A program made the position numbers and the translations under genes. This document shows positions 1,284 through 35,800 of a DNA stretch of 35,889 bases, one piece after another. The DNA comes from a virus (lineage: Duplodnaviria; Caudoviricetes): the IMG/VR virus record IMGVR_UViG_3300037751_000446, positions 1 to 35,889 of that record. One strand, 5' to 3'. The number at the start of each line of letters is the position of its first letter. The stretch's first letter is position 1. Below the pieces are notes generated by a model. The model saw nothing but the letters and a program-made list of their open reading frames with translations. It ran no database searches and was not told where the DNA came from.

Positions 1284-1594
1284 CACGCTGCCCGCCGCGC
1301 CGCGTAGACGGCCTGCCAGGCTGCCGCCGGAGGTGCGCCCAGCCGGGCCTCAAACTGAGTCGCCAATAGCTGCCCCGTCACGCAGTGGATGTCCTCCAAC
1401 GCCTGCCGCCCGGAGGGGCGTTCGCTGGCCCGCATCGAGCAGACCATCAGGGCCGCCCACACGCCCCAGGGGGCAGAGGACCACAGCGCCGACTTCAGAT
1501 CGTCTACCGCCTCGCGCTGGCGGGCCGTCAGCGGGGCGTAAGAGTCGGCGTACATGTAGATCGCCCGCCGCAGGCCGTCCAGGGGGTCTTTCAC
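1283..1594 (-). CDS. Hypothetical phage protein (start re-assigned to GTG 1594)
   Basis: GTGA overlap with the stop of the 1591..1740 ORF; TGATG coupling downstream. Confidence 0.6.
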   Translation of the reverse strand: MKDPLDGLRRAIYMYADSYAPLTARQREAVDDLKSALWSSAPWGVWAALMVCSMRASERPSGRQALEDIHCVTGQLLATQFEARLGAPPAAAWQAVYAARRAA

Positions 1595-1740
1595 AGCTTC
1601 CTCCGGTTCGTTCTCTTCATCGCCTGTGCCGCCTTCCGCTTGCGCTTGTTCTTCTGCCTGTTCCGGCGCATCTTCGCGTTCTGCGCCGTCTTCTGTTGGG
1701 TGTAGCCCGCCCGGTGGCTGGCGAAAAGGCCGGGGAGCAT
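1591..1740 (-). CDS. 49-aa highly basic protein (not in the ORF track)
   Basis: ATG directly follows the methylase stop; MLPGLFASHRAGYTQQKTAQNAKMRRNRQKNKRKRKAAQAMKRTNRRKL; 17 K/R, no D/E; coupled to the next gene. Confidence 0.65.
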   Translation of the reverse strand: MLPGLFASHRAGYTQQKTAQNAKMRRNRQKNKRKRKAAQAMKRTNRRKL

Positions 1741-2793
1741 CTATTCCGCCTCGGCGATCTGCTTCAGGCCGTTGGACGACTGAGACGGCACAAACATCCT
1801 CATTTGCACCGGCGCTTTCAAGCAGTGCGGGGAAAACCACACGACCTCGCGGTGGCGGTTGTCGTTACCGATATGCGCCATCCCTCTGTTTCCGCTGTAG
1901 GAAAGCCTCTCCCAGTCGTCGGGCATGGCCTCTTCGTGCTCCAGGTCGTAGCCGCACAGCGCGATCCGGTAGCGCGGGTTATCGCCCTTACTGATTGCCC
2001 ATTCCCGCGCGGCGTGGGCGACGGTCAGGTCTTCCTCAGCATAAGTTGAATTATCACGTCCGGCCTCGGCGCTGTAGGGCGGGTCAAGGAAGACCGCCGT
2101 CGTGCCGTTGTTTTCGGTTACGCTGAATGTCACCACTCGCGCCCAGTCCCCGCAGCACACCCGCACCCGGCGTAGGCGGGCCGCCAACGTCTCAAAGTAA
2201 GCGGGCAAGCCGCTGATGGACCCTCGCTTCACACCTTGCCCGGCGTCGCCCAGGTGGAGCAGTTTCCGCGTCACACCTTTCCCGGCGTCGCCCAGGTGGA
2301 GCAGTTTCCGCGTCACACCTTTCCCGGCGTCGCCGTTCTCCAGCCGCCCGTCCACGGCCTGCCAGGGGCCGTCACCCGAACAGAAGCCGCCGCCGATCCA
2401 CAGCGACAGGCCCCAGACCCACCAGCCCGCGATCTTCGGGTCATAGTAATCCGGGTCGCCTTCCAGTTGGGCTATAAAGTCAGTCTCAAATTTCTGGCGC
2501 ACGAGCCAGGCGTGCCGGGCGTGTAAATCGTTCTCATTGGCAGGCCAGTCGGCATAGCCCGCTACCGCCGCCGGGTCGTCCTGCAAGGCCCGCCAGAAGT
2601 TGGCGACCATGCCGTCTTTATCGTTGACGGTTTCGATATACCCGGCTCCGGGCGTCCACTCCGGGCGGGCCAGCAAACACGCGCCGGAACCGAAAAACGG
2701 CTCAACGTAGTTGCCCACGTCCGGGCCTAACCGCCGCCAGACTTCCGGTGCGATCTTCGACTTCCCGCCGAAATAAGGAAAGGGCGCTTTCAT
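1741..2793 (-). CDS. DNA adenine methyltransferase, Dam/D12 class
   Basis: FPYFGGK, YVEPFFGSG (motif I), VND, VFLDPPY (motif IV); ATGA overlap at 2793. Confidence 0.9.
   Translation of the reverse strand: MKAPFPYFGGKSKIAPEVWRRLGPDVGNYVEPFFGSGACLLARPEWTPGAGYIETVNDKDGMVANFWRALQDDPAAVAGYADWPANENDLHARHAWLVRQKFETDFIAQLEGDPDYYDPKIAGWWVWGLSLWIGGGFCSGDGPWQAVDGRLENGDAGKGVTRKLLHLGDAGKGVTRKLLHLGDAGQGVKRGSISGLPAYFETLAARLRRVRVCCGDWARVVTFSVTENNGTTAVFLDPPYSAEAGRDNSTYAEEDLTVAHAAREWAISKGDNPRYRIALCGYDLEHEEAMPDDWERLSYSGNRGMAHIGNDNRHREVVWFSPHCLKAPVQMRMFVPSQSSNGLKQIAEAE
2229..2334. repeat. 42-bp in-frame tandem repeat, about 2.5 copies
   Basis: Units at 2229, 2271 and 2313 encode GDAGKGVTRKLLHL. Confidence 0.95.
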
Positions 2794-3029
2794 CCCGCCG
2801 CCTCTTCCTCTCTCTGCCACTCAGCCCATTCATCGTTCATCGCCCGCAGATGCTCAATAAGGCCCGCAATATCGGCCTGCGGCACGTACAGAGCCGCCAG
2901 GACCACCAGGCCATGATGCTGGGTCAGGGCCAACCCGCCCCGACCGTCCGGCTGGGCTTTCAGGGCCAGGACGATGCGGTTGTCCGCGTCGCGCCGCGTC
3001 GAGAGGAGCAGGATGCTTTCACGGATCAT
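2790..3029 (-). CDS. Hypothetical phage protein (start at ATG 3029)
   Basis: ATGA overlaps at both ends. Confidence 0.6.
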   Translation of the reverse strand: MIRESILLLSTRRDADNRIVLALKAQPDGRGGLALTQHHGLVVLAALYVPQADIAGLIEHLRAMNDEWAEWQREEEAAG

Positions 3030-3316
3030 GATGCTACTCTTCCCATCTCTGAACCGCAGTAGGCACAGACCCCTCTTTCCACGTTGATCAACATATCCTC
3101 GCACACGTCCGGGAAAGCAGGAGCTACTCTGATCCACACTCTGGTTGTGCCAATCTGGTCTACTGTCTGAGCAGCCTTCCCGCGTGGAAGATTGTCGAAG
3201 CTGATTTCCACATTGAAATCAGAGGTCTGCTCCACGACGCCATAGCCGAAGCGGGAGTGATATATCCTCTCCCCGGTGACCAGATAGGGTTGTTCGTGCC
3301 GAGTGATGTCAGCCAC
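3026..3316 (-). CDS. Small Tudor/KOW-like (UvrD C-terminal/DUF3553-like) domain protein
   Basis: GERIYHSRFGYGVV motif; C-terminal CxxC. Confidence 0.55.
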   Translation of the reverse strand: MADITRHEQPYLVTGERIYHSRFGYGVVEQTSDFNVEISFDNLPRGKAAQTVDQIGTTRVWIRVAPAFPDVCEDMLINVERGVCAYCGSEMGRVAS

Positions 3317-4285: not shown

Positions 4286-4756
4286 ATGAAGGTACAACTG
4301 ACAACTAAGGGGAACACGGAAATAACCTACGACGTAAGGACAGAGAGAGCATACGAGGCTTCGATTAAGGCGCTCGGAACCATCGTTAAGACCGCGACCT
4401 CTGGCTACAACAAGAGGATGTGGGTTGAGGGCGATAAGGTTGCTGAGGCTAAGGCCATCGACAAGAACAAGCCAGCTTATCGTCGCCCAGCGGCCCCTCG
4501 TCGTAACGACACCCTGAGTGGCTGGACGGAAGACCAGGAAGACGGGATCGCCCCCCTGCCCAAGCCCTTTGACAGCGCCCAGGCAGAACAGAGCAAGCAG
4601 GAAGCCCGCGAGACCATTGCGGACGCAGAAGTATGGGCATTTGTAGATGCCTGCGCGAAACTGGTTAGCAACTACAATCACGAAATTCGCTTCCCCAACC
4701 TGATTGATGGCAGCCCGATTGACGAACTCATTAAGGGATGGGTGGCAGCACTCTAA
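4286..4756 (+). CDS. Hypothetical protein
   Basis: AAAGGA RBS, directly downstream of the consensus promoter. Confidence 0.75.
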   Translation: MKVQLTTKGNTEITYDVRTERAYEASIKALGTIVKTATSGYNKRMWVEGDKVAEAKAIDKNKPAYRRPAAPRRNDTLSGWTEDQEDGIAPLPKPFDSAQAEQSKQEARETIADAEVWAFVDACAKLVSNYNHEIRFPNLIDGSPIDELIKGWVAAL

Positions 4757-4812
4757 GCCGAAACGCCCTGCGGGGCGTCACCCTGGGGCGATGCCCAGGG
4801 TCTGATGACGGC
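4757..4812 (+). ncRNA. Hammerhead ribozyme, type II
   Basis: GCC-GAAA-C GCCC[TGCG]GGGC-GTC^ACCCTGGG[GCGATG]CCCAGGGT-CTGATGA-C-GGC; all core nucleotides present. Confidence 0.88.
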
Positions 4813-4839
4813 AGTCACCACGAACGAAAGGGACGAACG

Positions 4840-21127: not shown

Positions 21128-21467
21128 CCCTCAGCGAAGGAGGCACCCGCCGCATCCCTACCATCTTGACCTGAGACGTAGCCGCCTGCGCCTCTTCCTG
21201 GGCCTCCTCTTTCCAGAATTCCATCGAATCCTTGATGTTGTCCCGGATTTCCTTCTTCTTCTCGCTGGTCAGGCCAGAGGTGTACGAGTAGAACTTGTTC
21301 GCCTGGGCCAGCAGCTGCCGGTAGCCGTAGAACACCGCCAGGGCGTAGCTCTCGCCCGCCCGCGCATAGAGCCGGTTCAGTTCAGCGTCCGTGAAGACCG
21401 CCTCGTCATCCCCGATCCCTATATCTCCCTGCATGTCCGCCAGTTGATCGGCGCTCAGTTCGGCCAT
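21111..21467 (-). CDS. Head-tail adaptor protein
   Basis: IGD..VFTDAEL motif; position after the capsid genes. Confidence 0.65.
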   Translation of the reverse strand: MAELSADQLADMQGDIGIGDDEAVFTDAELNRLYARAGESYALAVFYGYRQLLAQANKFYSYTSGLTSEKKKEIRDNIKDSMEFWKEEAQEEAQAATSQVKMVGMRRVPPSLRDEPHG

Positions 21468-22486
21468 CACAGCACCTCATCCATCAGGGCCAGCAGCTTC
21501 AGCGCGGCGTGGTCCCAGGTCTGGTTAGCCCGCAGCCAGGCCGCGGCCTCCAGGCCCTTCGCTTTGGCCTCTGCCGGGTGCTCGTAGCACCAGCGCATGT
21601 GAGCCGCCACCTCGTCCACGTCCGCCACCGCCCATTCTCCGTTTTTGACCGGCAGCATCGACGGCATCATCATGAAGCGTTCCACCGGGATCGCCCACTG
21701 ATCGATGCCCTCTTCCAGCCCGCCCCAGCGGGTGGCGATCACCGGCAGGCCCATCATGGCGGCCTCTCGCGGCGGCATCCCCCAGCCCTCCCCTTTCGAG
21801 GGGAAGACGAAGCAGTCCGCCTGCTCGTACACTTCCGCCATGCTCTCCACCTCGCCCAGCCAGATCGAGACCCGCCGGTCGCTCTCGCTCAGGTCCATCT
21901 CCGCAAAACGCCGTGAACTGGGCCGCGCCTTGACGATCAGGCGCACGTCTTCCCCGTTCCCGAACTCCTGGAAGAAGGCCCGCCAGGCGATGTCCTCCCC
22001 CTTCCGGCTGCCCCGGTCGCCCAGGGCCAGGAAGGTGTAGGGACGATTCCCGTTCGGCGTCCGGCCCATTAGCGGGAAATCCTCCGGTGAGGTCCCCCCC
22101 GGCACGACGTGGATGGGCTTTTCCACCCCCGCCCGCCGGAACGCTTCCGCGTTCTGCACACAGGGCACGATCAGCCGTTCCGCCAGCCGGTTCACTTCAT
22201 TCGCCCAGCCTTCCGGGATCGCCGAGCATTCGTACATGGTCAGGTTCCACTGCCGCCCCGCCAGGGGGCGCAGTTCACAGGGGGGCAGGCAGGCCACCGT
22301 CAGCCGGGACCAGTCGATACCCGCCATGCGGGTCAACCAGCCCGGCAGTTCCGCCGTATCGCGCAGGGCGGGGGTCACATCCACGCCCGCCCGGTGCAAG
22401 GCCCGCACGAAGTACAGGCCGTAACGCCCGTAGCCGTCGGCGGGGAGGAACTTGTAGTTAAGCCAGTTGATCTGCCTGCTGCCCAT
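21467..22486 (-). CDS. GT4-family (GT-B, retaining) glycosyltransferase
   Basis: DGYGRY, SRKG, ADCFVFPSKGEGWGMPPREAAMMGLPVI (EX7E). Confidence 0.9.
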   Translation of the reverse strand: MGSRQINWLNYKFLPADGYGRYGLYFVRALHRAGVDVTPALRDTAELPGWLTRMAGIDWSRLTVACLPPCELRPLAGRQWNLTMYECSAIPEGWANEVNRLAERLIVPCVQNAEAFRRAGVEKPIHVVPGGTSPEDFPLMGRTPNGNRPYTFLALGDRGSRKGEDIAWRAFFQEFGNGEDVRLIVKARPSSRRFAEMDLSESDRRVSIWLGEVESMAEVYEQADCFVFPSKGEGWGMPPREAAMMGLPVIATRWGGLEEGIDQWAIPVERFMMMPSMLPVKNGEWAVADVDEVAAHMRWCYEHPAEAKAKGLEAAAWLRANQTWDHAALKLLALMDEVL

Positions 22487-22503
22487 GTTCACCTTTTTTC
22501 AGG

Positions 22504-25429: not shown

Positions 25430-26296
25430 TTATGCCTCCACCCCCGCCACCGCCATCCGGTGGCCCTCGCACCATGCCTCAAGCGAATAACCCGCCGTCG
25501 CCTCACGCAGCGCTTCCGGGTCCGCCTGGCTTAACAGGGCCGTCTGCACTGCGCCCTCAAGCGACCAGAAGTCCCCTTTCCCATACCGCCAGATGCCGGG
25601 GATATCCGGAAGTTCGTCCAGCATCCCCACCCCGCACGGGATCACCACCTGCACCCCGCAGGCCAGTGCCTCAAGGGGTCCCGCTGGCCCGCCTTCGATC
25701 AGCGACGTGCAGACGTACACGTCCAGCCCCCGGTAAAAGTCGGGCATCTCCTCGTAGGGGAGGCGGCTTTCCGCCACCCCCCAGCCTGCTCCCGCCGCCA
25801 CGAAACTGTGTTTTTCAAAGAGGGCGTCCTGGGCGATCTGTTGGAAGAGCGTTTCACCCTTGCGTCCGCCCCGGTAAACCAGTCCGCTGGTCCCGATCAC
25901 CTGCCCTGCCCCCTGCCTTTTCCCCACCGGGGTAAAGTGCTCCCGGTCAATACCCAGCCGCACCTTCGCTGCCGGGCCGTGTCGTTCCAGTTTCTCAAGC
26001 GTCTGGTAGGCGGTGGCTATCCGCAGGCTCAACTGCGGGATGATCCCCTCCCATGCCTTCCGGTTGGGGGTGTAGTTGTAATCGTAATGAGTACACCAGG
26101 CCGCCGTGCTCAATCCCGCCATCTCCTCTTTCCAGAACAGGTAGCAGCCCAGGTAATTGAGGTCCGCCGCCGGGTCTGCCTCCGGTCCCAGCGTCCAGCC
26201 GTTCCCCTCCGCCAGCGCCCGGTTCAGGCGCGGGATGATGTGCTCGCTGTTCGGGCCTGTCTGGAAAGCCCAGGGGTTCACGATGTGGACGTGCAT
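25430..26296 (-). CDS. GT4-family glycosyltransferase
   Basis: GIDREHF, GRKG, LDVYVCTSLIEGGPAGPLEALACGV (EX7E). Confidence 0.88.
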   Translation of the reverse strand: MHVHIVNPWAFQTGPNSEHIIPRLNRALAEGNGWTLGPEADPAADLNYLGCYLFWKEEMAGLSTAAWCTHYDYNYTPNRKAWEGIIPQLSLRIATAYQTLEKLERHGPAAKVRLGIDREHFTPVGKRQGAGQVIGTSGLVYRGGRKGETLFQQIAQDALFEKHSFVAAGAGWGVAESRLPYEEMPDFYRGLDVYVCTSLIEGGPAGPLEALACGVQVVIPCGVGMLDELPDIPGIWRYGKGDFWSLEGAVQTALLSQADPEALREATAGYSLEAWCEGHRMAVAGVEA

Positions 26297-26299
26297 CAG

Positions 26300-27070
26300 C
26301 TACCCTCTCCGCAACAGGTCAATCAGTTCGGCCTTGCGTAAGCGGCCCGCCCCGATCATCCCGGCGGCTTCCACCAGTTCGCGCAGCTCGCTGACCGTCA
26401 TGCTCTCGTAGTCTGGGAGGTCGTCCGCGGACACGTCCACGGACGGCGTCTCTATCTCATCCAGTGCCGTCAGGTCCCCGTAGAACATCAGGAAGACCGT
26501 ATGCGCCCAGCGCCCGGTCGCTCCCCGCCCGGCGTAGCCCAGCGCCTTCGTCCCGTAAAGTGGGACTTCCTTCCATTCGTGGCGCTCCGGGTTCACTTTA
26601 TCCATGCGGTGGGTCGCCCCCATCTTCAGGGAGCCCCCCATCACCAGGTCGTCCAGCCAGTCGCTCCCATCATTCCACAGGGACTGCCCGGCAGGGAGTG
26701 TGATGTAGAGCGTCCCGTCATCCGCCAGCCAGCTTTTCAGCCTCTCAACTGCCGCCAGCACTTCTTTCGCGCCGTTCAGGTGGTCCAGCGTGCTGATGCA
26801 GATAATCCGCCGGTATTGGCGCTCCGGCTCGAAGGAGAACAGGTTGATGTTGTTCACGCCGGGGAGTTGTTCTCGCATGTCGATGACTTCATGACGGAAT
26901 GGACTGGGCAGGTAATGGGGCAGCACCGCCCCCACTTCGAGTGCGTCTTCCTCGTGTCCGTCCAGCAGGGCCAGGCCCACCGGCACTTCCACCGCCCGTT
27001 CGTTCAGGCGGGAGTGGTTGTAAGCCATGTCCATGTAGTCGTAGGTCCTGCCTCGTAATATAAAACTCAT
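26300..27070 (-). CDS. Class I SAM-dependent methyltransferase-like protein fused to a C-terminal Rho-N/SAP-like helical domain
   Basis: NERAVEVP, ALEVG, IICISTLDH, LADDGTLYITLP; tail MTVSELRELVEAAGM..LRKAELIDLL. Confidence 0.7.
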   Translation of the reverse strand: MSFILRGRTYDYMDMAYNHSRLNERAVEVPVGLALLDGHEEDALEVGAVLPHYLPSPFRHEVIDMREQLPGVNNINLFSFEPERQYRRIICISTLDHLNGAKEVLAAVERLKSWLADDGTLYITLPAGQSLWNDGSDWLDDLVMGGSLKMGATHRMDKVNPERHEWKEVPLYGTKALGYAGRGATGRWAHTVFLMFYGDLTALDEIETPSVDVSADDLPDYESMTVSELRELVEAAGMIGAGRLRKAELIDLLRRG

Positions 27071-28002
27071 ATCCATCGCTCCATCAGGGCTTCTATCCGC
27101 GCCCGGCTCGCCCGGAAACTGTATTCCTCTTCCACTACCCGGAATCCGCGCAGGCGCACTTCTTCATAATCTTCCGGGTGCTCCAGCAGCCGCGCTGCGA
27201 TCTCCAGCGCCCATTCGGGGCGGTAGGGATGGCACTCCGGGTGTCCGGTCACCCCGGCCCACAGGCTGCTGATGCAGGGCGTCCCTACCATGGCGCACAG
27301 CACCCCGTGCCGGTGATAGCTGTGTCGGGCATACAGGTCCACGCACAGCCGCGCCCGCGCCGTCATTTCCACGAACTCTCCAAAAGCCACCCGCCCCGTC
27401 CATTCCGCTTCCAGCCCTGCCAGCCGCGCATAGGCTTTCGTCTCCTCACGGGCGTCGGCGTAAAGCACCCGCCTTCCCGTCTCCCGCTGGATAAGCGCCA
27501 GGGCCGCCACGTTGTGGGCGCTGGCATAGGGTTCAAGCGGGTGATCCAGCGCCAGGATATAGTCCTCTTTTGCCATCTCCCGGTACGGTAGGAACCATTC
27601 ATCAGGCCCTATCGGGCTGGGCAGCCAGGCGCTCGGCTTGTTCAGCAGCGCCCCGTAGACCTCGCAGTCGTAGGGCGTCCGTCCGCCGATCAGGTCCGCC
27701 AGCGCCATTTCCTCAAACATGTGCCCCCACTCCCGGTGATAGAGCACCAGGTCAAGTGAGGGGTCCGGCATGACGATTACCTTGATTGCCGGGTTCCCCG
27801 CCTTGATGTCCCGGATAGGCCGAGTCTCCGACAGGTGGAAGAGGTTGACCATCAGGACCTGGTAGCCGCGCAGGTCCGGGACTGTCCCGTTCCAGCGCAT
27901 CGGCTCGCAGCCAAGCACTTCCGACCACAGGGCCACGCTCACGCTGTTGGTTTTTGTGTACTGTGCGCTCTGGTTCTCGCCCCACACGAAGCCGATCTTC
28001 AT
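27067..28002 (-). CDS. Divergent GT-B glycosyltransferase
   Basis: MKIGFVW start; ARARLCV..CAMVGTPCIS C-terminal Rossmann pattern; lacks EX7E. Confidence 0.7.
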   Translation of the reverse strand: MKIGFVWGENQSAQYTKTNSVSVALWSEVLGCEPMRWNGTVPDLRGYQVLMVNLFHLSETRPIRDIKAGNPAIKVIVMPDPSLDLVLYHREWGHMFEEMALADLIGGRTPYDCEVYGALLNKPSAWLPSPIGPDEWFLPYREMAKEDYILALDHPLEPYASAHNVAALALIQRETGRRVLYADAREETKAYARLAGLEAEWTGRVAFGEFVEMTARARLCVDLYARHSYHRHGVLCAMVGTPCISSLWAGVTGHPECHPYRPEWALEIAARLLEHPEDYEEVRLRGFRVVEEEYSFRASRARIEALMERWI

Positions 28003-30532: not shown

Positions 30533-31787
30533 ATAACCCTTGAGTCTTCACCCGGCGCACGGGCGATCCTTTTTTGCCTACCATTAGTTCGGTCAAAGCC
30601 CACACCAGCGCGTCCAGCCGGTTCGGGCTGTTCCGGCTATCGCCGGGGACCCAGCCTGTCATTTCCATCTCAAGGGCGCTGAACCGCCGCCCGACGTGGT
30701 GGATCAGCCCGCGCTCGTAGAGAGCCGCCACCGGTTCTGCCCGGATCGCCTTGCCCCGGCTGGCATGGATCGTCTTCAGGCTGGCGCTCTCTCCGCCCTC
30801 CACCGCCCGGATGGTGTGCTCCACCATGTCCCCGCCGAAGTTCGCCTCGGCGATGATCCGGTCCCCTTTGTGGCGTTCGTAAGCGCTCACCACTTCACTC
30901 CCCCAGGTCTGCGGGGAGCCTTGCAGCGAGGCGTCTTCCAGCACGTAGGCGTGACCGTCTTTTCCCAGTCCCGCCGCGATAATTCCGCATTCCGTCACCC
31001 CACCCGGCGGGTCCACCCCAACTACTACACGAATTAATTCAGGGTGACGGCTGGCCCGCATCTCCTCGATCAGCGCCATACTCCACAGCGCACGCGGGTC
31101 CTCGTCCAGGTCCAACGCCTCGATCTCCTGGCGGTAGGCCAGCGCCGTCATGTCCCCGGCGATCTCTTCCAGCGCTTCCGCGCTGATGTGCGGGTTTTCG
31201 TGGCTGGTGAAGTGGAAGGCTTCCCAGCGCCCACTCTTGTCCCCCGCCGCCCGTTTGAAGAGCTTTGCCGCGTGGCGAGGGTCCCTGGCCTGGGTCCGGC
31301 TCTTGCTGTTCAGGGTAGGGGGGGTGTAGATGAACACTGCGTCCCCATCGTTGTCCAGCAGCATCGGCGCGCCGACCTGCCCCCAGGCGTCCTCGTTCAT
31401 CAGTTGAAACTCGTCCAAGATCAGCGTGTCGGCGTAATCCCCGCGCAGCGTGTTGGCGTCCCAGGCCGTCTTGGCCCGGATGCGCTGTTCGCTGCCCGGC
31501 AGTTCGATGATGTGTCGCGTCTCGTTTTTGTAGAGCACCTTCGCCGCAATCGCCTCTCTCAGCGCCCGTTTGCACTCCTCCCAGAAGCGGTCGATCTGCT
31601 CCTGGGTGGGGGCCGCATAGAGCACCCGCCGTCCCTTCAGAAACTCCTCCACCGCCAGGATCGCCATGCCGGTGGTCTTCCCCCCGCGCCGCCCGGCCCG
31701 CACCACTTTGCGCTTGGCCCGGCTGTCAAGGAAGGCCCGCTGCTTGTTGTGCGGGTCCTTCAGATACACACTCAGTGTCGTGGTCAT
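30507..31787 (-). CDS. terL: Terminase large subunit
   Basis: Walker A AGRRGGKT, Walker B LILDE, nuclease VGVDP and PNRLDA; ATGA overlap with terS. Confidence 0.95.
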   Translation of the reverse strand: MTTTLSVYLKDPHNKQRAFLDSRAKRKVVRAGRRGGKTTGMAILAVEEFLKGRRVLYAAPTQEQIDRFWEECKRALREAIAAKVLYKNETRHIIELPGSEQRIRAKTAWDANTLRGDYADTLILDEFQLMNEDAWGQVGAPMLLDNDGDAVFIYTPPTLNSKSRTQARDPRHAAKLFKRAAGDKSGRWEAFHFTSHENPHISAEALEEIAGDMTALAYRQEIEALDLDEDPRALWSMALIEEMRASRHPELIRVVVGVDPPGGVTECGIIAAGLGKDGHAYVLEDASLQGSPQTWGSEVVSAYERHKGDRIIAEANFGGDMVEHTIRAVEGGESASLKTIHASRGKAIRAEPVAALYERGLIHHVGRRFSALEMEMTGWVPGDSRNSPNRLDALVWALTELMVGKKGSPVRRVKTQGLYGSRDKYR

Positions 31788-32266: not shown

Positions 32267-32997
32267 CCCGCCAGCCCTTGCCTCGTCATCCAGCCCGCCA
32301 CCCACAGCGCCGCAAAGGGCAGCCAGGGCAGCCCCGCCATCAGCGGGATCGGGGCGCTGCCACTTCCATAAGGCGAACACAGGATGCTGGCCGTCATCGC
32401 CAGCGCCATCCGCCCCCGCTTCAGGGCGTAAAATCCCAGTGCCAGCCCGATTGCCAGTCCCCAGGGCCACCACCACGCCTCGTCCGGCGCGCCGCTCAAC
32501 TGCTGCGGCAGACCGTAGAGGGCCAGGGTCAGCGCCGCCAGCGCCAGGAGAGGCCCCACCGTGATCAGGAGTTTTCCCCTGCGCTGTGCCTGCTGGACGA
32601 TAATCCCCATCACCCAGACCGTCGATTGTGGCTTGGCGGAGAGCACGATCAGCGCCAGCGGCCCCGGCAGCAGGACGCCAAGCCACAACAGCGGTTCGAG
32701 GTTGCCCATTGCCAGTGTGAAGAGCACCGGCCAGCTCAGGAGGATCAGCGCCAGCCGCGCCGGGGGGATCCGCATCCGCCGTCCCCCTGCGATCAGCGCC
32801 CCGATGCTCACCAGCCGGAAGGCCGTCGGCATCCCTGGCCAGTCCCGCGCCAGGTAGAAGGGCAGCGCCAGCAGCAGTGCCCAGGCCGGGTTGTGAAAGC
32901 CCAGCGTCGGGTGAATCGGCGTCTGCCGGTAGGGGTTCAGCCCCGCCAGCAGCCAGTCAATCGCCGCCTCATATACCGCCCAGTCAACCATGCCCAT
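32263..32997 (-). CDS. GT87/DUF2029-like integral membrane (GT-C) glycosyltransferase
   Basis: GLNPY, FHNPAWALLL.LPF, GNLE, KPQ motifs; many TM segments; ATGA-coupled to terS. Confidence 0.72.
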   Translation of the reverse strand: MGMVDWAVYEAAIDWLLAGLNPYRQTPIHPTLGFHNPAWALLLALPFYLARDWPGMPTAFRLVSIGALIAGGRRMRIPPARLALILLSWPVLFTLAMGNLEPLLWLGVLLPGPLALIVLSAKPQSTVWVMGIIVQQAQRRGKLLITVGPLLALAALTLALYGLPQQLSGAPDEAWWWPWGLAIGLALGFYALKRGRMALAMTASILCSPYGSGSAPIPLMAGLPWLPFAALWVAGWMTRQGLAG

Positions 32998-33109
32998 CCC
33001 GTCGCAGGGGCGGACCCGTGTATCCGCCCGCATTCAGAGGGTGCTTTCGCTCCCGGTCGCTTTTCGCCCCATCTCGTCTATGTGTGTGGGCAGCTATGAC
33101 CGGACAGCA

Positions 33110-33143
33110 AAATGCCTCTGTCTACAGTGTGACAGAGGCATTT
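33110..33143. promoter_or_regulatory. Perfect 13-bp inverted repeat upstream of the late operon
   Basis: aaatgcctctgtc-N8-gacagaggcattt; abuts a minus-strand TTGACA (33148..33143). Confidence 0.6.
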
Positions 33144-33185
33144 GTCAAGATGTTGCACAGGATGTTACAACTACACGAAATAAGG

Positions 33186-33218
33186 GCGGGCGCTGTCCTC
33201 CGAATTGACAGCGCCCGC
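33186..33218 (-). terminator. Perfect 12-bp hairpin directly after the omegaRNA guide
   Basis: gcgggcgctgtc-N9-gacagcgcccgc, followed by CCTTATTT on the minus strand. Confidence 0.6.
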
Positions 33219-33220
33219 GC

Positions 33221-33360
33221 AATCAGGATAGTATAAGTGAACTCCTCGCGCACACGGGTGCAACCCTTCTGCTGGTTCTCAGGCAACGCACACTCCACTG
33301 AGCCACGTTAGCGCCTGAAGGCCCGTTCCGGGCCTCTCAAGGTTCAATTTACCGCCCTCG
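33221..33360 (-). ncRNA. TnpB omegaRNA (reRNA) scaffold plus about 16-nt guide; 5' boundary approximate
   Basis: AGGCCCG/CGGGCCT and TCAGGC..GCCTGA stems after the tnpB stop; right-end motif TCAC at 33240..33237; guide TTATACTATCCTGATT. Confidence 0.7.
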
Positions 33361-34438
33361 CCAGGATATTACGTGCTGCATTCACATCTCTGTCCAGCAA
33401 AAGGCCGCAGGCGGGACAGTCATGGACGCGCACGGAGAGGGCTTTTTCTACGATGCTCCCACACCCGCTGCACATCTGGGAGGTCCACTTCGGATCAACC
33501 CTTACGATCTCGGCCCCGGCCTCGGCGGCCTTGTAGCCGAGCAATTCCTGGAAGATGCCCAGCCCTATGTCATGAGCCACCCGCGCCAGGGTCGGGTTTC
33601 GCAGCATGAAGCTCAGGGAGAGGTCCTCCAGGGCGATCAGGCCGTAGCTGTTCGCCAGCCGTCGGCTCACCTTGTGCCAGAAATCCCTTCTCTGGTTTTC
33701 GAGCCTTTCATGCTGGCGGGCCAACAGTTGGATGGCCTTTCGCCTCCTGTGGCTCCCTTTCTTTTTTCTGGCGACCGCCCTCTGGAGCCGCCGAAATTTC
33801 CTCAGCGAAGCCTCCAGGCTGTACAGGCTGTCGATAATGGTTCCGTCGCTGAGCGCCAGCGCGTGCTTGATCCCCATGTCGATGCCCACCGCCGGGCCGG
33901 GATGAGGGGCGGGTTCAGGGTCGGGCAGTTCGAGCGACAGGCAGACATACCAGCCGGACGGCTTGCGGAGGACCCGCACGGTCTTAATCCTGGCGTCGTC
34001 AGGGAGTTCCCTGTGCCAGCGGGCCTCTATCAGGCCCACGCTCTGAATATAGAGCCGGTCTTCCCGGAGGTGAGCGCCGTTGCGATAGGTAAACTCCAGG
34101 CTGTTGAAGTTTCGGAAGGGCTTGAAGCGGGGCCGCCCGCGCTTCCCTTTCAGGAATTGGAGGTACGCGCCGTCAAGGCGGCGCAGGACCCGCTTACCGG
34201 CATGTTGATTAAGCGCCTGAAGGGGATTGATTGACGGTTCCTCGTTTCGCCACGCGCTCCACAGCTTCTCTTGCTCGTACACGCTCACCGACCGCCGCGA
34301 TTTTTGCCAGGCGTCCCGTCGATGGTGGAGGGCGCGGTTATAGAGCCACCACCCGGCCCACAAAATATCCTTGAGGCCACGTTCTTGCTCCGGTGTGGGG
34401 TAGAGTCGGTATTTGTACGTTCGCTTTATCTCACTCAT
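33344..34438 (-). CDS. tnpB: RNA-guided endonuclease TnpB
   Basis: YKYRLYPT, RuvC motifs GIDMG / ALEDL / DRDVNAARNI, zinc finger CSGC..CPAC; AAGGAGG RBS. Confidence 0.95.
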   Translation of the reverse strand: MSEIKRTYKYRLYPTPEQERGLKDILWAGWWLYNRALHHRRDAWQKSRRSVSVYEQEKLWSAWRNEEPSINPLQALNQHAGKRVLRRLDGAYLQFLKGKRGRPRFKPFRNFNSLEFTYRNGAHLREDRLYIQSVGLIEARWHRELPDDARIKTVRVLRKPSGWYVCLSLELPDPEPAPHPGPAVGIDMGIKHALALSDGTIIDSLYSLEASLRKFRRLQRAVARKKKGSHRRRKAIQLLARQHERLENQRRDFWHKVSRRLANSYGLIALEDLSLSFMLRNPTLARVAHDIGLGIFQELLGYKAAEAGAEIVRVDPKWTSQMCSGCGSIVEKALSVRVHDCPACGLLLDRDVNAARNILARAVN

Positions 34439-34471
34439 AGTCCTCCTTTTTATGAGCCTCACCGGGGACGC

Positions 34472-34502
34472 AAAAACCCGCGTCCATCGTGAGTCGCGGG
34501 TT
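34472..34502 (-). terminator. Terminator/attenuator in the tnpB leader
   Basis: AACCCGCG-N12-CGCGGGTT followed by TTT, about 35 nt before the tnpB ATG. Confidence 0.65.
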
Positions 34503-34529
34503 GGAAGGCAGTTGACGGCGCGTTATAAT
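34501..34529 (+). promoter_or_regulatory. Antisense sigma70-type promoter
   Basis: TTGGAA-N17-TATAAT. Confidence 0.65.
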
Positions 34530-34534
34530 GAGCC

Positions 34535-34612
34535 GCAGCTTCCTCCGTGGCGTTTCACGGTGGGCAGTCAGGGCCTGGGGGGTGTTGCTTGCACCTTCCA
34601 GGTCCGTTTTCT
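34535..34612 (+). ncRNA. Candidate cis-antisense sRNA to the tnpB leader
   Basis: Starts after TATAAT; hairpin ccgtg/cacgg; ends in a 14-bp stem that pairs fully only on the plus strand (G-U pairs), then GTTTTCT. Confidence 0.55.
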
Positions 34613-34626
34613 ATCGATGCCCTATT

Positions 34627-34875
34627 CTACTCCGAGTCGGGGCCGGGGTCAATAAGCTGGTCCAGCCGTCCGTATCGCTGCCACCTGGCGTCCCTGATCT
34701 CCTCCAGGTAGGCCATCTCCGCTTCCACGCGGCGATTGTCCCAGCGCGCCTGCGCCCGCTGGACCGCCTGCTCGAATTCCTCGTCCGGCGAGAGGTCATC
34801 GTCCTTTATCTCCCGGATGGTCATGAATGCGCTCGGCTTCCGCTTTCCGAAACCGCTGAGAAACTGCTTAATCAT
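34627..34875 (-). CDS. Hypothetical phage protein
   Basis: GGAGG RBS; in line with neighbouring genes. Confidence 0.6.
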   Translation of the reverse strand: MIKQFLSGFGKRKPSAFMTIREIKDDDLSPDEEFEQAVQRAQARWDNRRVEAEMAYLEEIRDARWQRYGRLDQLIDPGPDSE

Positions 34876-34900
34876 CGTGTTTTCCTCCGCCCGTCTCCGG

Positions 34901-34923
34901 GCTGATTAGCTGATTAGCTGACT
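34901..34923. repeat. Short tandem repeat gctgatta gctgatta gctgact
   Basis: Read directly; same GCTGA core as the 1247..1277 repeat. Confidence 0.6.
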
Positions 34924-35278
34924 ACCCGACCATTCGGTCCAGCGACGGCACGAAGCTAAACGCTAACTGCTCAACGCGCTTGCGGCGCACCGCCGCCCGC
35001 CAGCCGTATTTGGGGTGGGCCGCCAGCCGTTCCACCACGCCAGCCGCCTCCAGCGCCGTCAGACGGCGGTAGTAGGTGATGCGGTTGGCCCGCACCCCCG
35101 CCAGGCCCATGATAACCGACATTTTCAAATAGCCGCCGGGACGGGCCGTCAGCGCTTCCCAGATCGCCGCGTCCAACCCGTAGAGCGCCCCCGGCTCCAC
35201 GATCTCGAATTCCTCGCCGGGCCGCAGGTCTACCTGGTTGACCGCCTGGCAGCGGCGGCAGTGGAAGGTTTGGATCAT
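34922..35278 (-). CDS. Putative winged-helix DNA-binding protein with N-terminal CxxC
   Basis: YYRRLTALEAAGVVER..YGW wHTH pattern; GAGGA RBS. Confidence 0.6.
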   Translation of the reverse strand: MIQTFHCRRCQAVNQVDLRPGEEFEIVEPGALYGLDAAIWEALTARPGGYLKMSVIMGLAGVRANRITYYRRLTALEAAGVVERLAAHPKYGWRAAVRRKRVEQLAFSFVPSLDRMVG

Positions 35279-35500: not shown

Positions 35501-35800
35501 TCAAATCCTTATACGGCTGGTTTGGACGGCAAAGGCATGTTGGGCCATCTCTTTGTTCGGCATAACCCCTGCGACCAGGAGTGCCGTCTGTACAGGGTCT
35601 TCCATGTAGACGAACGCCTGGAGAATGGTAGCCAGCGTGGAAGCCAGTTCGTCAAACTCCATGCCATGCTCGTCATAACCAGCAGCTGTGAAGGGGTCAC
35701 ACCTGTCGTTCAGTAGGTCGATCACAGGTTGGAGTGAAGTAGGCCAGTTCTTATCAGTCATCGAAGTTCCTTTCATGGGTAAGTCGTTTGATTCAGCCAT
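35501..35800 (-). CDS. Hypothetical phage protein (start may be the internal ATG at 35761)
   Basis: Open frame packed against neighbours; AAAGGA precedes the internal ATG. Confidence 0.55.
   Translation of the reverse strand: MAESNDLPMKGTSMTDKNWPTSLQPVIDLLNDRCDPFTAAGYDEHGMEFDELASTLATILQAFVYMEDPVQTALLVAGVMPNKEMAQHAFAVQTSRIRI

Follow-up and report, generated by a model that had tools for sequence, protein, structure and literature searches.

The stretch of DNA analysed here, a whole linear virus record of 35,889 bases (the window; 73% complete), carries a tnpB gene and guide-RNA unit from which the transposon-end hairpins are missing. The unit is real, well formed and immobilised. It is derived from an IS605 element and may act as a free-standing RNA-guided homing nuclease against sister phages that lack it, a reading that we favour tentatively. 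That it is not an ordinary recent IS insertion is supported because both hairpins used by TnpA are missing, the best protein match is distant, the gene has a promoter and leader of its own, and the scaffold core is intact. The region contains the following features.

33110–33143, no strand assigned: second perfect inverted repeat, 13 bp, with the same core (CTGTC-N8-GACAG) as the next and T runs on both strands
33186–33218, no strand assigned: perfect 12-bp inverted repeat with a CTGTC-N9-GACAG core, a candidate terminator or operator
33205–33234, plus: sigma-70-like promoter, overlapping hairpin and guide and running antisense into the scaffold
33221–33236, minus: predicted 16-nt guide TTATACTATCCTGATT, whose 5' junction differs among near-identical copies
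33237–33278, minus: degenerate right end, with the family CTTTAG-loop hairpin replaced; it ends in TTCAC, the TTC pairing with the stem-1 loop
33279–33334, minus: omegaRNA scaffold core, with stem 1 bearing the pseudoknot loop GAA (33328–33326) and a long stem with an inner hairpin, from alignment and covariation
33344–34438, minus: tnpB, 364 aa, with RuvC residues and zinc finger intact and predicted TAM-reading positions changed
34439–34617, minus: structured tnpB leader, with a terminator-like hairpin (34472–34502), an AGGAGG ribosome site and no IS left end
34501–34615, plus: predicted antisense RNA unit (promoter 34501–34529, RNA of about 80 nt, terminator 34571–34605)
34624–34652, minus: sigma-70-like tnpB promoter, TTGACC-17-TAGAAT, from a promoter scan

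Genomic setting and probable host

The minus strand of the record carries terminase, portal, head, tail and tape-measure genes. tnpB shares this strand. Upstream of it lie small ORFs and downstream an orphan 256-aa ORF preceding terS, with which a homologue search returned only itself. The GC3 of tnpB (0.76) falls in the range of 12 other genes of the record (0.74–0.87), so there is no sign of recent foreign origin. Named homologues of TnpB belong to Anaerolineae and other Chloroflexota, and by this sequence kinship a host from the Anaerolineae or elsewhere in the Chloroflexota is therefore likely. At least half of the region's words were found in four runs, each from a different study and with soil or sediment as its label; one of these runs may be the window's own source, and no RNA dataset was among the listed holders of the region.

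Elsewhere in the record, a type II hammerhead ribozyme scoring over the Rfam gathering score (4756–4820, plus) lies directly 3' of a 156-aa plus-strand ORF (4286–4756), itself preceded by a promoter-like TTGACA..TATAAT. A tRNA-Met(CAT) occupies 870–941 on the minus strand, with a second tRNA-like match, uncalled by ARAGORN, at 786–866. The head module includes two family-4 glycosyltransferase genes and a methyltransferase-like gene (21467–22492, 25430–26296 and 26300–27076, minus).

An intact TnpB with altered TAM-reading positions

Profile searches of the protein returned HTH_OrfB_IS605, OrfB_IS605 and Cas12f1-like_TNB, with guided_TnpB above its cut-off, and the HTH, D-E-D RuvC and zinc finger of the TnpB family are all present. 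A first-pass annotation, made by a model from the letters alone, had described the three RuvC acidic residues and the zinc finger as intact and tnpA as absent, and both statements held: D187, E271 and D351 and C323/C326/C341/C344 agree with 118–119 of 119 homologues, and no Y1 tnpA was found in the 73% complete record, by a search whose control gave a signal in 6 of 14 genomes or by tblastn with tnpA of kin. Among 5.8 billion protein clusters the closest homologue is 67% identical, and the protein's own 90% cluster has one member. TnpB branches early within the CCAT group (below), on a terminal branch of 0.51 against a median of 0.11, a length inflated by query-centred sampling.

In an alignment with ISDra2 TnpB (8bf8), V53, E57, Q78, H79, K82 and R119 correspond to the TAM-reading residues Y52, S56, K76, F77, Q80 and N124. 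Position 82, K in the window, is Q in 114 of 119 homologues and at 19 of 19 CCAT loci; position 53, here V, is Y in 102 of 119 homologues. For ISDra2, alanine at Y52 or Q80 is reported to abolish cleavage (PMC10097598). From these replacements the TAM may have shifted in the window TnpB, or its recognition may have weakened. With these positions changed, CCAT sites may no longer be cut, which also limits CCAT as a filter on targets. K82 speaks for another reading, that of a co-opted weapon, which we consider unlikely. On this view the phage would turn the nuclease on a locus of its host or on a competitor unrelated to it; the TAM would have shifted, and the guides, one of which would be directed at the terminase genes of rivals, might be exchangeable. 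Similar changes of the TAM module in P0004–P0007 and P0010, some in multi-member clusters, stand against this use of K82, and their recurrence there means that they are no proof of domestication. Among the four runs' contigs, tnpB shows no other letters.

Family anatomy and the guide-RNA scaffold

The anatomy of the family was derived from independent insertions in one genome and in phages. From left to right an element has CCAT as its TAM, a left-end hairpin whose loop is of the CTTTAG type, tnpB (in some elements together with tnpA), the scaffold, a right-end hairpin that matches the left one, and finally TCAC. CCAT precedes the left end at 19 kin loci (six from one genome; two near-identical), and the L007 element separates a ribosome site from a start codon. 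A related phage (L240, terL 64%) contains a canonical CCAT tnpA–tnpB element at about 1580–3290, some 5 kb upstream of terL. Among kin, phages included (L001, L007, L008, L378), tnpB usually stands alone in an element with full ends, as would suit a recent IS1341-type insertion of the ordinary kind, mobilised in trans by the TnpA of a host, its junction variants being different insertion flanks. That explanation, very improbable in our estimate, is opposed by the one-member 90% cluster, by the degenerate right-end hairpin and by the lack of a left end.

For the scaffold, an alignment was made of the window and 23 chosen relatives (25 were tried; one without a found end and one near-duplicate were dropped). 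In a hand-drawn structure 95.9% of cells are paired, with both-side changes in 24 of 31 pairs; covariation lay above all 500 shuffles and all slid controls, for a structure drawn from the same rows on which it was scored and for related sequences, which can exceed shuffles. Pairing and covariation thus place a scaffold with a pseudoknot before the guide, as in the TnpB family. The window keeps 23 of 23 core pairs. Its pseudoknot is GAA/TTC, shared with L019, where 18 of 23 relatives have GAC/GTC; the switch is a compensatory change.

The scaffold terminates in GAGTTCAC at 33237, followed by TTATACTATCCTGATT, in line with the initial statement that the omegaRNA ends in TCAC and with the right ends of IS200/IS605 elements. 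The subterminal right-end hairpin of such elements is lacking: it had looked irregular at first sight, and the comparison bears this out, 4 of 8 family pairs being kept and the loop motif being absent, against 6–8 of 8 pairs in 21 of 23 relatives and none in the other two (L015, L084). The ISDra2 pseudoknot involves bases −5 to −3, and removing the distal stem 3b causes no loss there (PMC10097598); by analogy, we infer that stem 3b is the counterpart of the decayed hairpin. TnpA, for its part, needs the end hairpins (10.1101/2023.03.14.532601). With the scaffold core kept and the end hairpins lost, the unit could still guide the nuclease and could hardly be moved.

Other tnpB copies were seen with altered ends. 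In L015 (5001–6224) an intact tnpB lies against the strand between tail chaperone-like and tape-measure genes, with its right-end hairpin cut to a stub and a compensatory GAG/CTC pseudoknot. The hairpin is reduced or missing also in L084 (514–1675), L038, L097 and L385 (373–1554), the last having lost most of the scaffold and running into the next gene. As the end-less copies of L015, L084, L038 and L385 lie on different branches or in different contexts, loss of ends recurs.

That such end-less copies are common in phages suits a further explanation, a stranded remnant: an old insertion whose ends were lost, now passively carried, with neutral indels at the guide and no current target. The scoring of 89% of TnpB clusters as immobile (PMC10691335) points the same way, and the distance from known kin may reflect thin sampling. 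We rate a remnant as possible but rather improbable; the frame, the catalytic residues and every core pair survive although both end hairpins are lost.

Upstream region

No IS left end was found upstream of tnpB, where 660 bases hold a single CCAT, inside an ORF and without the family hairpin; the TAM and subterminal hairpin that open an IS200/IS605 element are thus missing. In their place are the predicted promoter and leader and the antisense RNA unit (z −5.55; 0 of 200 shuffles), and the leader and upstream ORF are continuous in contigs of three runs (X2, X3 and X4). The leader matched no Rfam family, and in genomes it gave short matches in 2 of 191, inside coding sequence. A leader-type hairpin at the left end of the record (32–66, plus), likewise without an Rfam family, resembles the hairpin common to the tnpB leader and the antisense terminator. 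A consensus promoter, ribosome site and antisense unit in front of tnpB speak against passive carriage, and lost ends, a kept scaffold and a regulated promoter of its own, as predicted, would suit a co-opted weapon. The claim that the unit is no ordinary recent IS is upheld by this promoter and leader together with the loss of both end hairpins and the distance of the best protein match.

Guide, downstream hairpin and overlapping promoter

Two bases separate the guide from the 12-bp hairpin, which starts 18 nt after TCAC. In the 60-base right flanks of related loci the best stem was at most 7 bp at 60 of the 60 loci scored (the end was misplaced at about 8, and one had only 5 flank bases; 13 further loci lacked a pattern-found end), so the 12 bp of the window are more than chance. 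The first-pass annotation had noted a perfect terminator-like hairpin within 2 nt of the guide. Perfection and distance were confirmed; likeness to a terminator is qualified by a weak T tail and by the hairpin's absence from the terminator scan, whose limit its 9-base loop exceeds.

The reverse complement of the guide, said earlier to resemble a −10 region, is indeed the −10 part of a consensus promoter, TTGACA..TAGTAT, on the plus strand (33205–33234); the promoter scan gave 4 sites against 0.8 ± 1.0 in shuffles. The −35 box lies inside the 12-bp hairpin and, as the hairpin also shares its CTGTC...GACAG core with the second repeat, it may combine the roles of terminator and operator. The earlier failure to find a full match to the guide elsewhere in the window was reproduced, the best other 16-mer match having 5 mismatches.

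Variants of the guide junction

Contigs of the four runs (X1–X4) were placed on the region, and no other letters were listed in them between 32630 and 34602. In X3, nine extra bases, GGATGACAG, stand behind 33236, exactly between TCAC and the guide, and are followed by the same downstream flank. The junction is read in one contig of 202 bases (depth 3.84, no other letters), and single contigs under depth 5 may err. In the upstream ORFs X3 has ten other letters (35105–35141) and, at 35501, a loose end, which mark it as a related strain and not the same isolate. With nine more bases, TCAC and the hairpin do not stand at a constant distance, and the 25-nt spacing in X3 weakens the original description of a short, hairpin-delimited guide. 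On its plus strand the X3 allele has the promoter, followed by nine bases and the element. An ancestral CCAT would extend this by ATGG, a possible start of a nearly leaderless gene; the TAM of the family favours such a site, as at L007. This suggests that the X3 allele is ancestral and that the window lost nine bases, the reverse order also being possible.

One X1 contig (depth 4.2) matches 33237–33459 and continues with 26 other bases, whose letters were not read; a second ends at 33236–33237, according to depth arithmetic checked on an X3 bin. As both stop at the junction, no X1 contig bridges the junction of the window. The placement tool linked the 26 bases to a terL segment that ends at 31538, with "between: not known", a class that is often spurious.

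31513–31538, minus: conserved terL stretch VLYKNETRH, the tool placement of X1's 26 junction bases and a candidate link only

X1 may carry the allele of X3, it may be a deletion or a chimera, or it may have an insert of greater length. The first fits the depth arithmetic and not the placement, an X3-type 26-mer failing to map to the 31538 site. Among relatives the terL stretch is conserved at the DNA level (7–15 of 16 bases identical in 56 of 57 distinct sites). Upstream of it, NGGN is found in 47 of the 57 and CCAT never, and the window has GAAG; the NGGN may merely reflect a conserved glycine codon.

Each explanation meets these variants differently. A junction that varies is what neutral indels in a remnant would give. 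A different flank exactly after TCAC, as in X1, is expected of a second insertion by a recent IS, a reading opposed by the unchanged flank beyond the extra bases of X3 and already largely refuted. For a co-opted weapon, X1 contigs that stop at the junction and bases placed at a conserved terL stretch, with NGGN in most relatives against GAAG here, would be favourable signs; they come from one contig of low depth with a 26-base side, unread letters and a placement of doubtful class. A more elaborate version, which we regard as a long shot, would have a domesticated, nuclease-active phage TnpB gain guides at the scaffold/guide junction, the old guide being pushed downstream as in a repeat-less, polarised spacer uptake. 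One guide would then be directed against the YKNETRH stretch of rival terminase genes, where a K82-shifted TAM would read the GG of most rivals and not of the carrier.

Searches for relatives and targets

Viral contigs searched with the protein alone held no close relative (0 of 9 stretches), and a subfamily scan of viral contigs gave 5 loci, all with a right-end hairpin. In metagenome contigs the best TnpB relative was 60% identical (32 loci), and in annotated phages, with 438 records containing TnpB, all were under 60%. None of 401 Anaerolineae genomes had a match at E 1e-125 (at most 5 candidates scored per genome, no positive control); a scaffold DNA search found one of the 401, with a canonical element. 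Sister phages were sought by terL, giving 80 loci, of which one had tnpB, as a canonical tnpA–tnpB element; no phage was closer than 68% in terL among the matches returned, from which very near records may be missing. A portal search gave 5 loci, none with tnpB, and a close terL was found in 0 of 391 Chloroflexota genomes. No conserved partner gene, and no orthologue in other phages, was found, the neighbours being without homologues in the loci searched; this counts against a co-opted weapon. Nor was there a CRISPR array, no repeat family exceeding 2 copies among the 20 largest of 26 in 32900–35000; the Cas12f2 and C2c8 models stayed below cut-off, and the array expected of Cas12f/TranC is thus also absent.

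The guide was searched, as originally proposed, against phage and candidate host genomes behind a common 5' TAM, and no target emerged in IMG/VR or the 401 Anaerolineae genomes. In IMG/VR the window guide had 48 exact matches at 47 viral loci, none behind CCAT; they lie in low-GC contigs (GC 0.19–0.47), at chance level. The X3 guide matched exactly at 37 loci in viral contigs, again with none behind CCAT. With at most one mismatch the window guide was found in 4 of 401 Anaerolineae genomes against 6 control matches, none behind CCAT, and CCAT followed by the 8-base seed reached at best 11 of 16 in 386 fetched loci and the window. A 19-base guide match found twice in L217 was rejected, as it sits in an AT-rich tandem repeat. 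Matches at control level in the Anaerolineae, and viral ones confined to low-GC contigs, argue against a weapon, and a target missing from every search suits a remnant. The negative is weak, since the searched sets lacked the host genome and close sister phages. The same limit applies to the pattern named beforehand as the mark of a recent IS insertion, identical copies with other flanks plus an empty-site allele: neither several copies with different flanks nor an empty site was found in the viral, metagenome and 401 Anaerolineae sets.

A proposed history of the unit

The first-pass annotation had offered homing into element-free sister phages or co-option against a host or competitor locus. 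Homing needs fewer assumptions, and no host or competitor target was found for the alternative. In the homing scheme that we favour, an Anaerolineae-type IS605 element with TAM CCAT would have inserted just behind the plus-strand phage promoter, probably at a start codon, since CCAT read from the opposite strand is ATGG, the arrangement seen at L007. Replacement of the left end, and of the gene that the element had interrupted, would have come later. The right-end hairpin may have decayed at no cost to the nuclease, as the scaffold appears able to do without that part. The guide would remain the phage's own flanking DNA, and its default substrate would thus be the homologous site, free of the element, of a prophage or a co-infecting phage; the cut site would be repaired from the carrier copy or simply destroyed. 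In the carrier itself the guide sequence is preceded by TCAC instead of a TAM, which would protect it from cutting.

Homing is favoured by a guide that is phage promoter sequence with no second match in the window, and protein-only nucleases are known to carry out intronless homing in phages (PMC13565253). Against it stand the lack of an element-free allele, the 0 of 48 and 0 of 37 exact viral matches behind CCAT, and the changed counterparts of ISDra2 Y52 and Q80. In addition, as the guide varies at its first bases among near-identical copies, a fixed target would be lost in at least one allele.

Two functions of the right end have come apart here, the transposase hairpin being lost and the guide scaffold kept, and the unit is thus well suited to testing whether homing alone can maintain a TnpB. 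Should the junction variants prove to be real guide exchange, new guides could be gained with neither transposition nor CRISPR arrays. At present this extends to one phage lineage whose target was not found.

Comparison with known systems

The closest structural model is the IS200/IS605 TnpB–omegaRNA of ISDra2 (PDB 8bf8/8h1j; PMC10097598), for which a homing role has been described (10.1101/2023.03.14.532601). Domain order, DED triad, zinc finger and a 3'-end scaffold with its pseudoknot just before a flank-derived guide are common to both; unlike ISDra2-type elements, the window has no tnpA or left end, a decayed right-end hairpin and other TAM-reading residues. Anaerolineae IS605/IS1341 elements with TAM CCAT (L001, L007 and the G001 copies) share 56–63% protein identity, the same scaffold and the TCAC end, but keep both CTTTAG-type hairpins and Q82, neither of which the window copy has.

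Phage TnpBs are frequent (PMC12607003), and mini-arrays are known RNA-guided tools of phage rivalry (PMC11656645). In the literature covered, with subscription titles mostly outside it, no phage TnpB with nuclease activity was found for which a rival target has been shown or guides are exchanged at the junction. Nuclease-active TnpBs outside transposons are a stated gap: PMC10691335 gives no function for those it lists, and the TldR preprint (10.1101/2023.11.30.569447) urges their examination. TldR repressors are likewise phage-borne, without tnpA or recognisable ends, and have promoter-like guides. They have lost the DED triad and possess a conserved partner gene and conserved target (10.1101/2023.11.30.569447), whereas the window TnpB has an active-type RuvC, and neither a conserved partner gene nor a conserved promoter target was found for it in the loci and genomes searched. 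Cyanophage Mic1 gp49 (PMC11237433), from another host phylum and described with no defined guide or target in the text covered, is a phage TnpB with intact catalytic residues that may aid its phage; its disruption went with a drop in burst size, a point in favour of co-option as a weapon. The free-standing homing endonucleases Seg and Mob of T4 resemble the unit in the proposed cutting of related phages that lack the gene; they recognise DNA by protein only, where the unit would use an RNA guide and a TAM (PMC13565253).

Non-mobile TnpBs with active RuvC are already known (PMC10691335). They have in common with the window an intact RuvC, a single copy, no linked partner gene and a function left open, but form clades fixed in cellular lineages, as that source describes them, whereas the window has a single copy, carried by a phage, in which the scaffold is intact and the guide junction varies. 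To the first-pass annotation, sequence comparison adds the kinship with the CCAT family, the loss of both end hairpins with 23 of 23 core scaffold pairs retained, and the changed TAM-reading positions.
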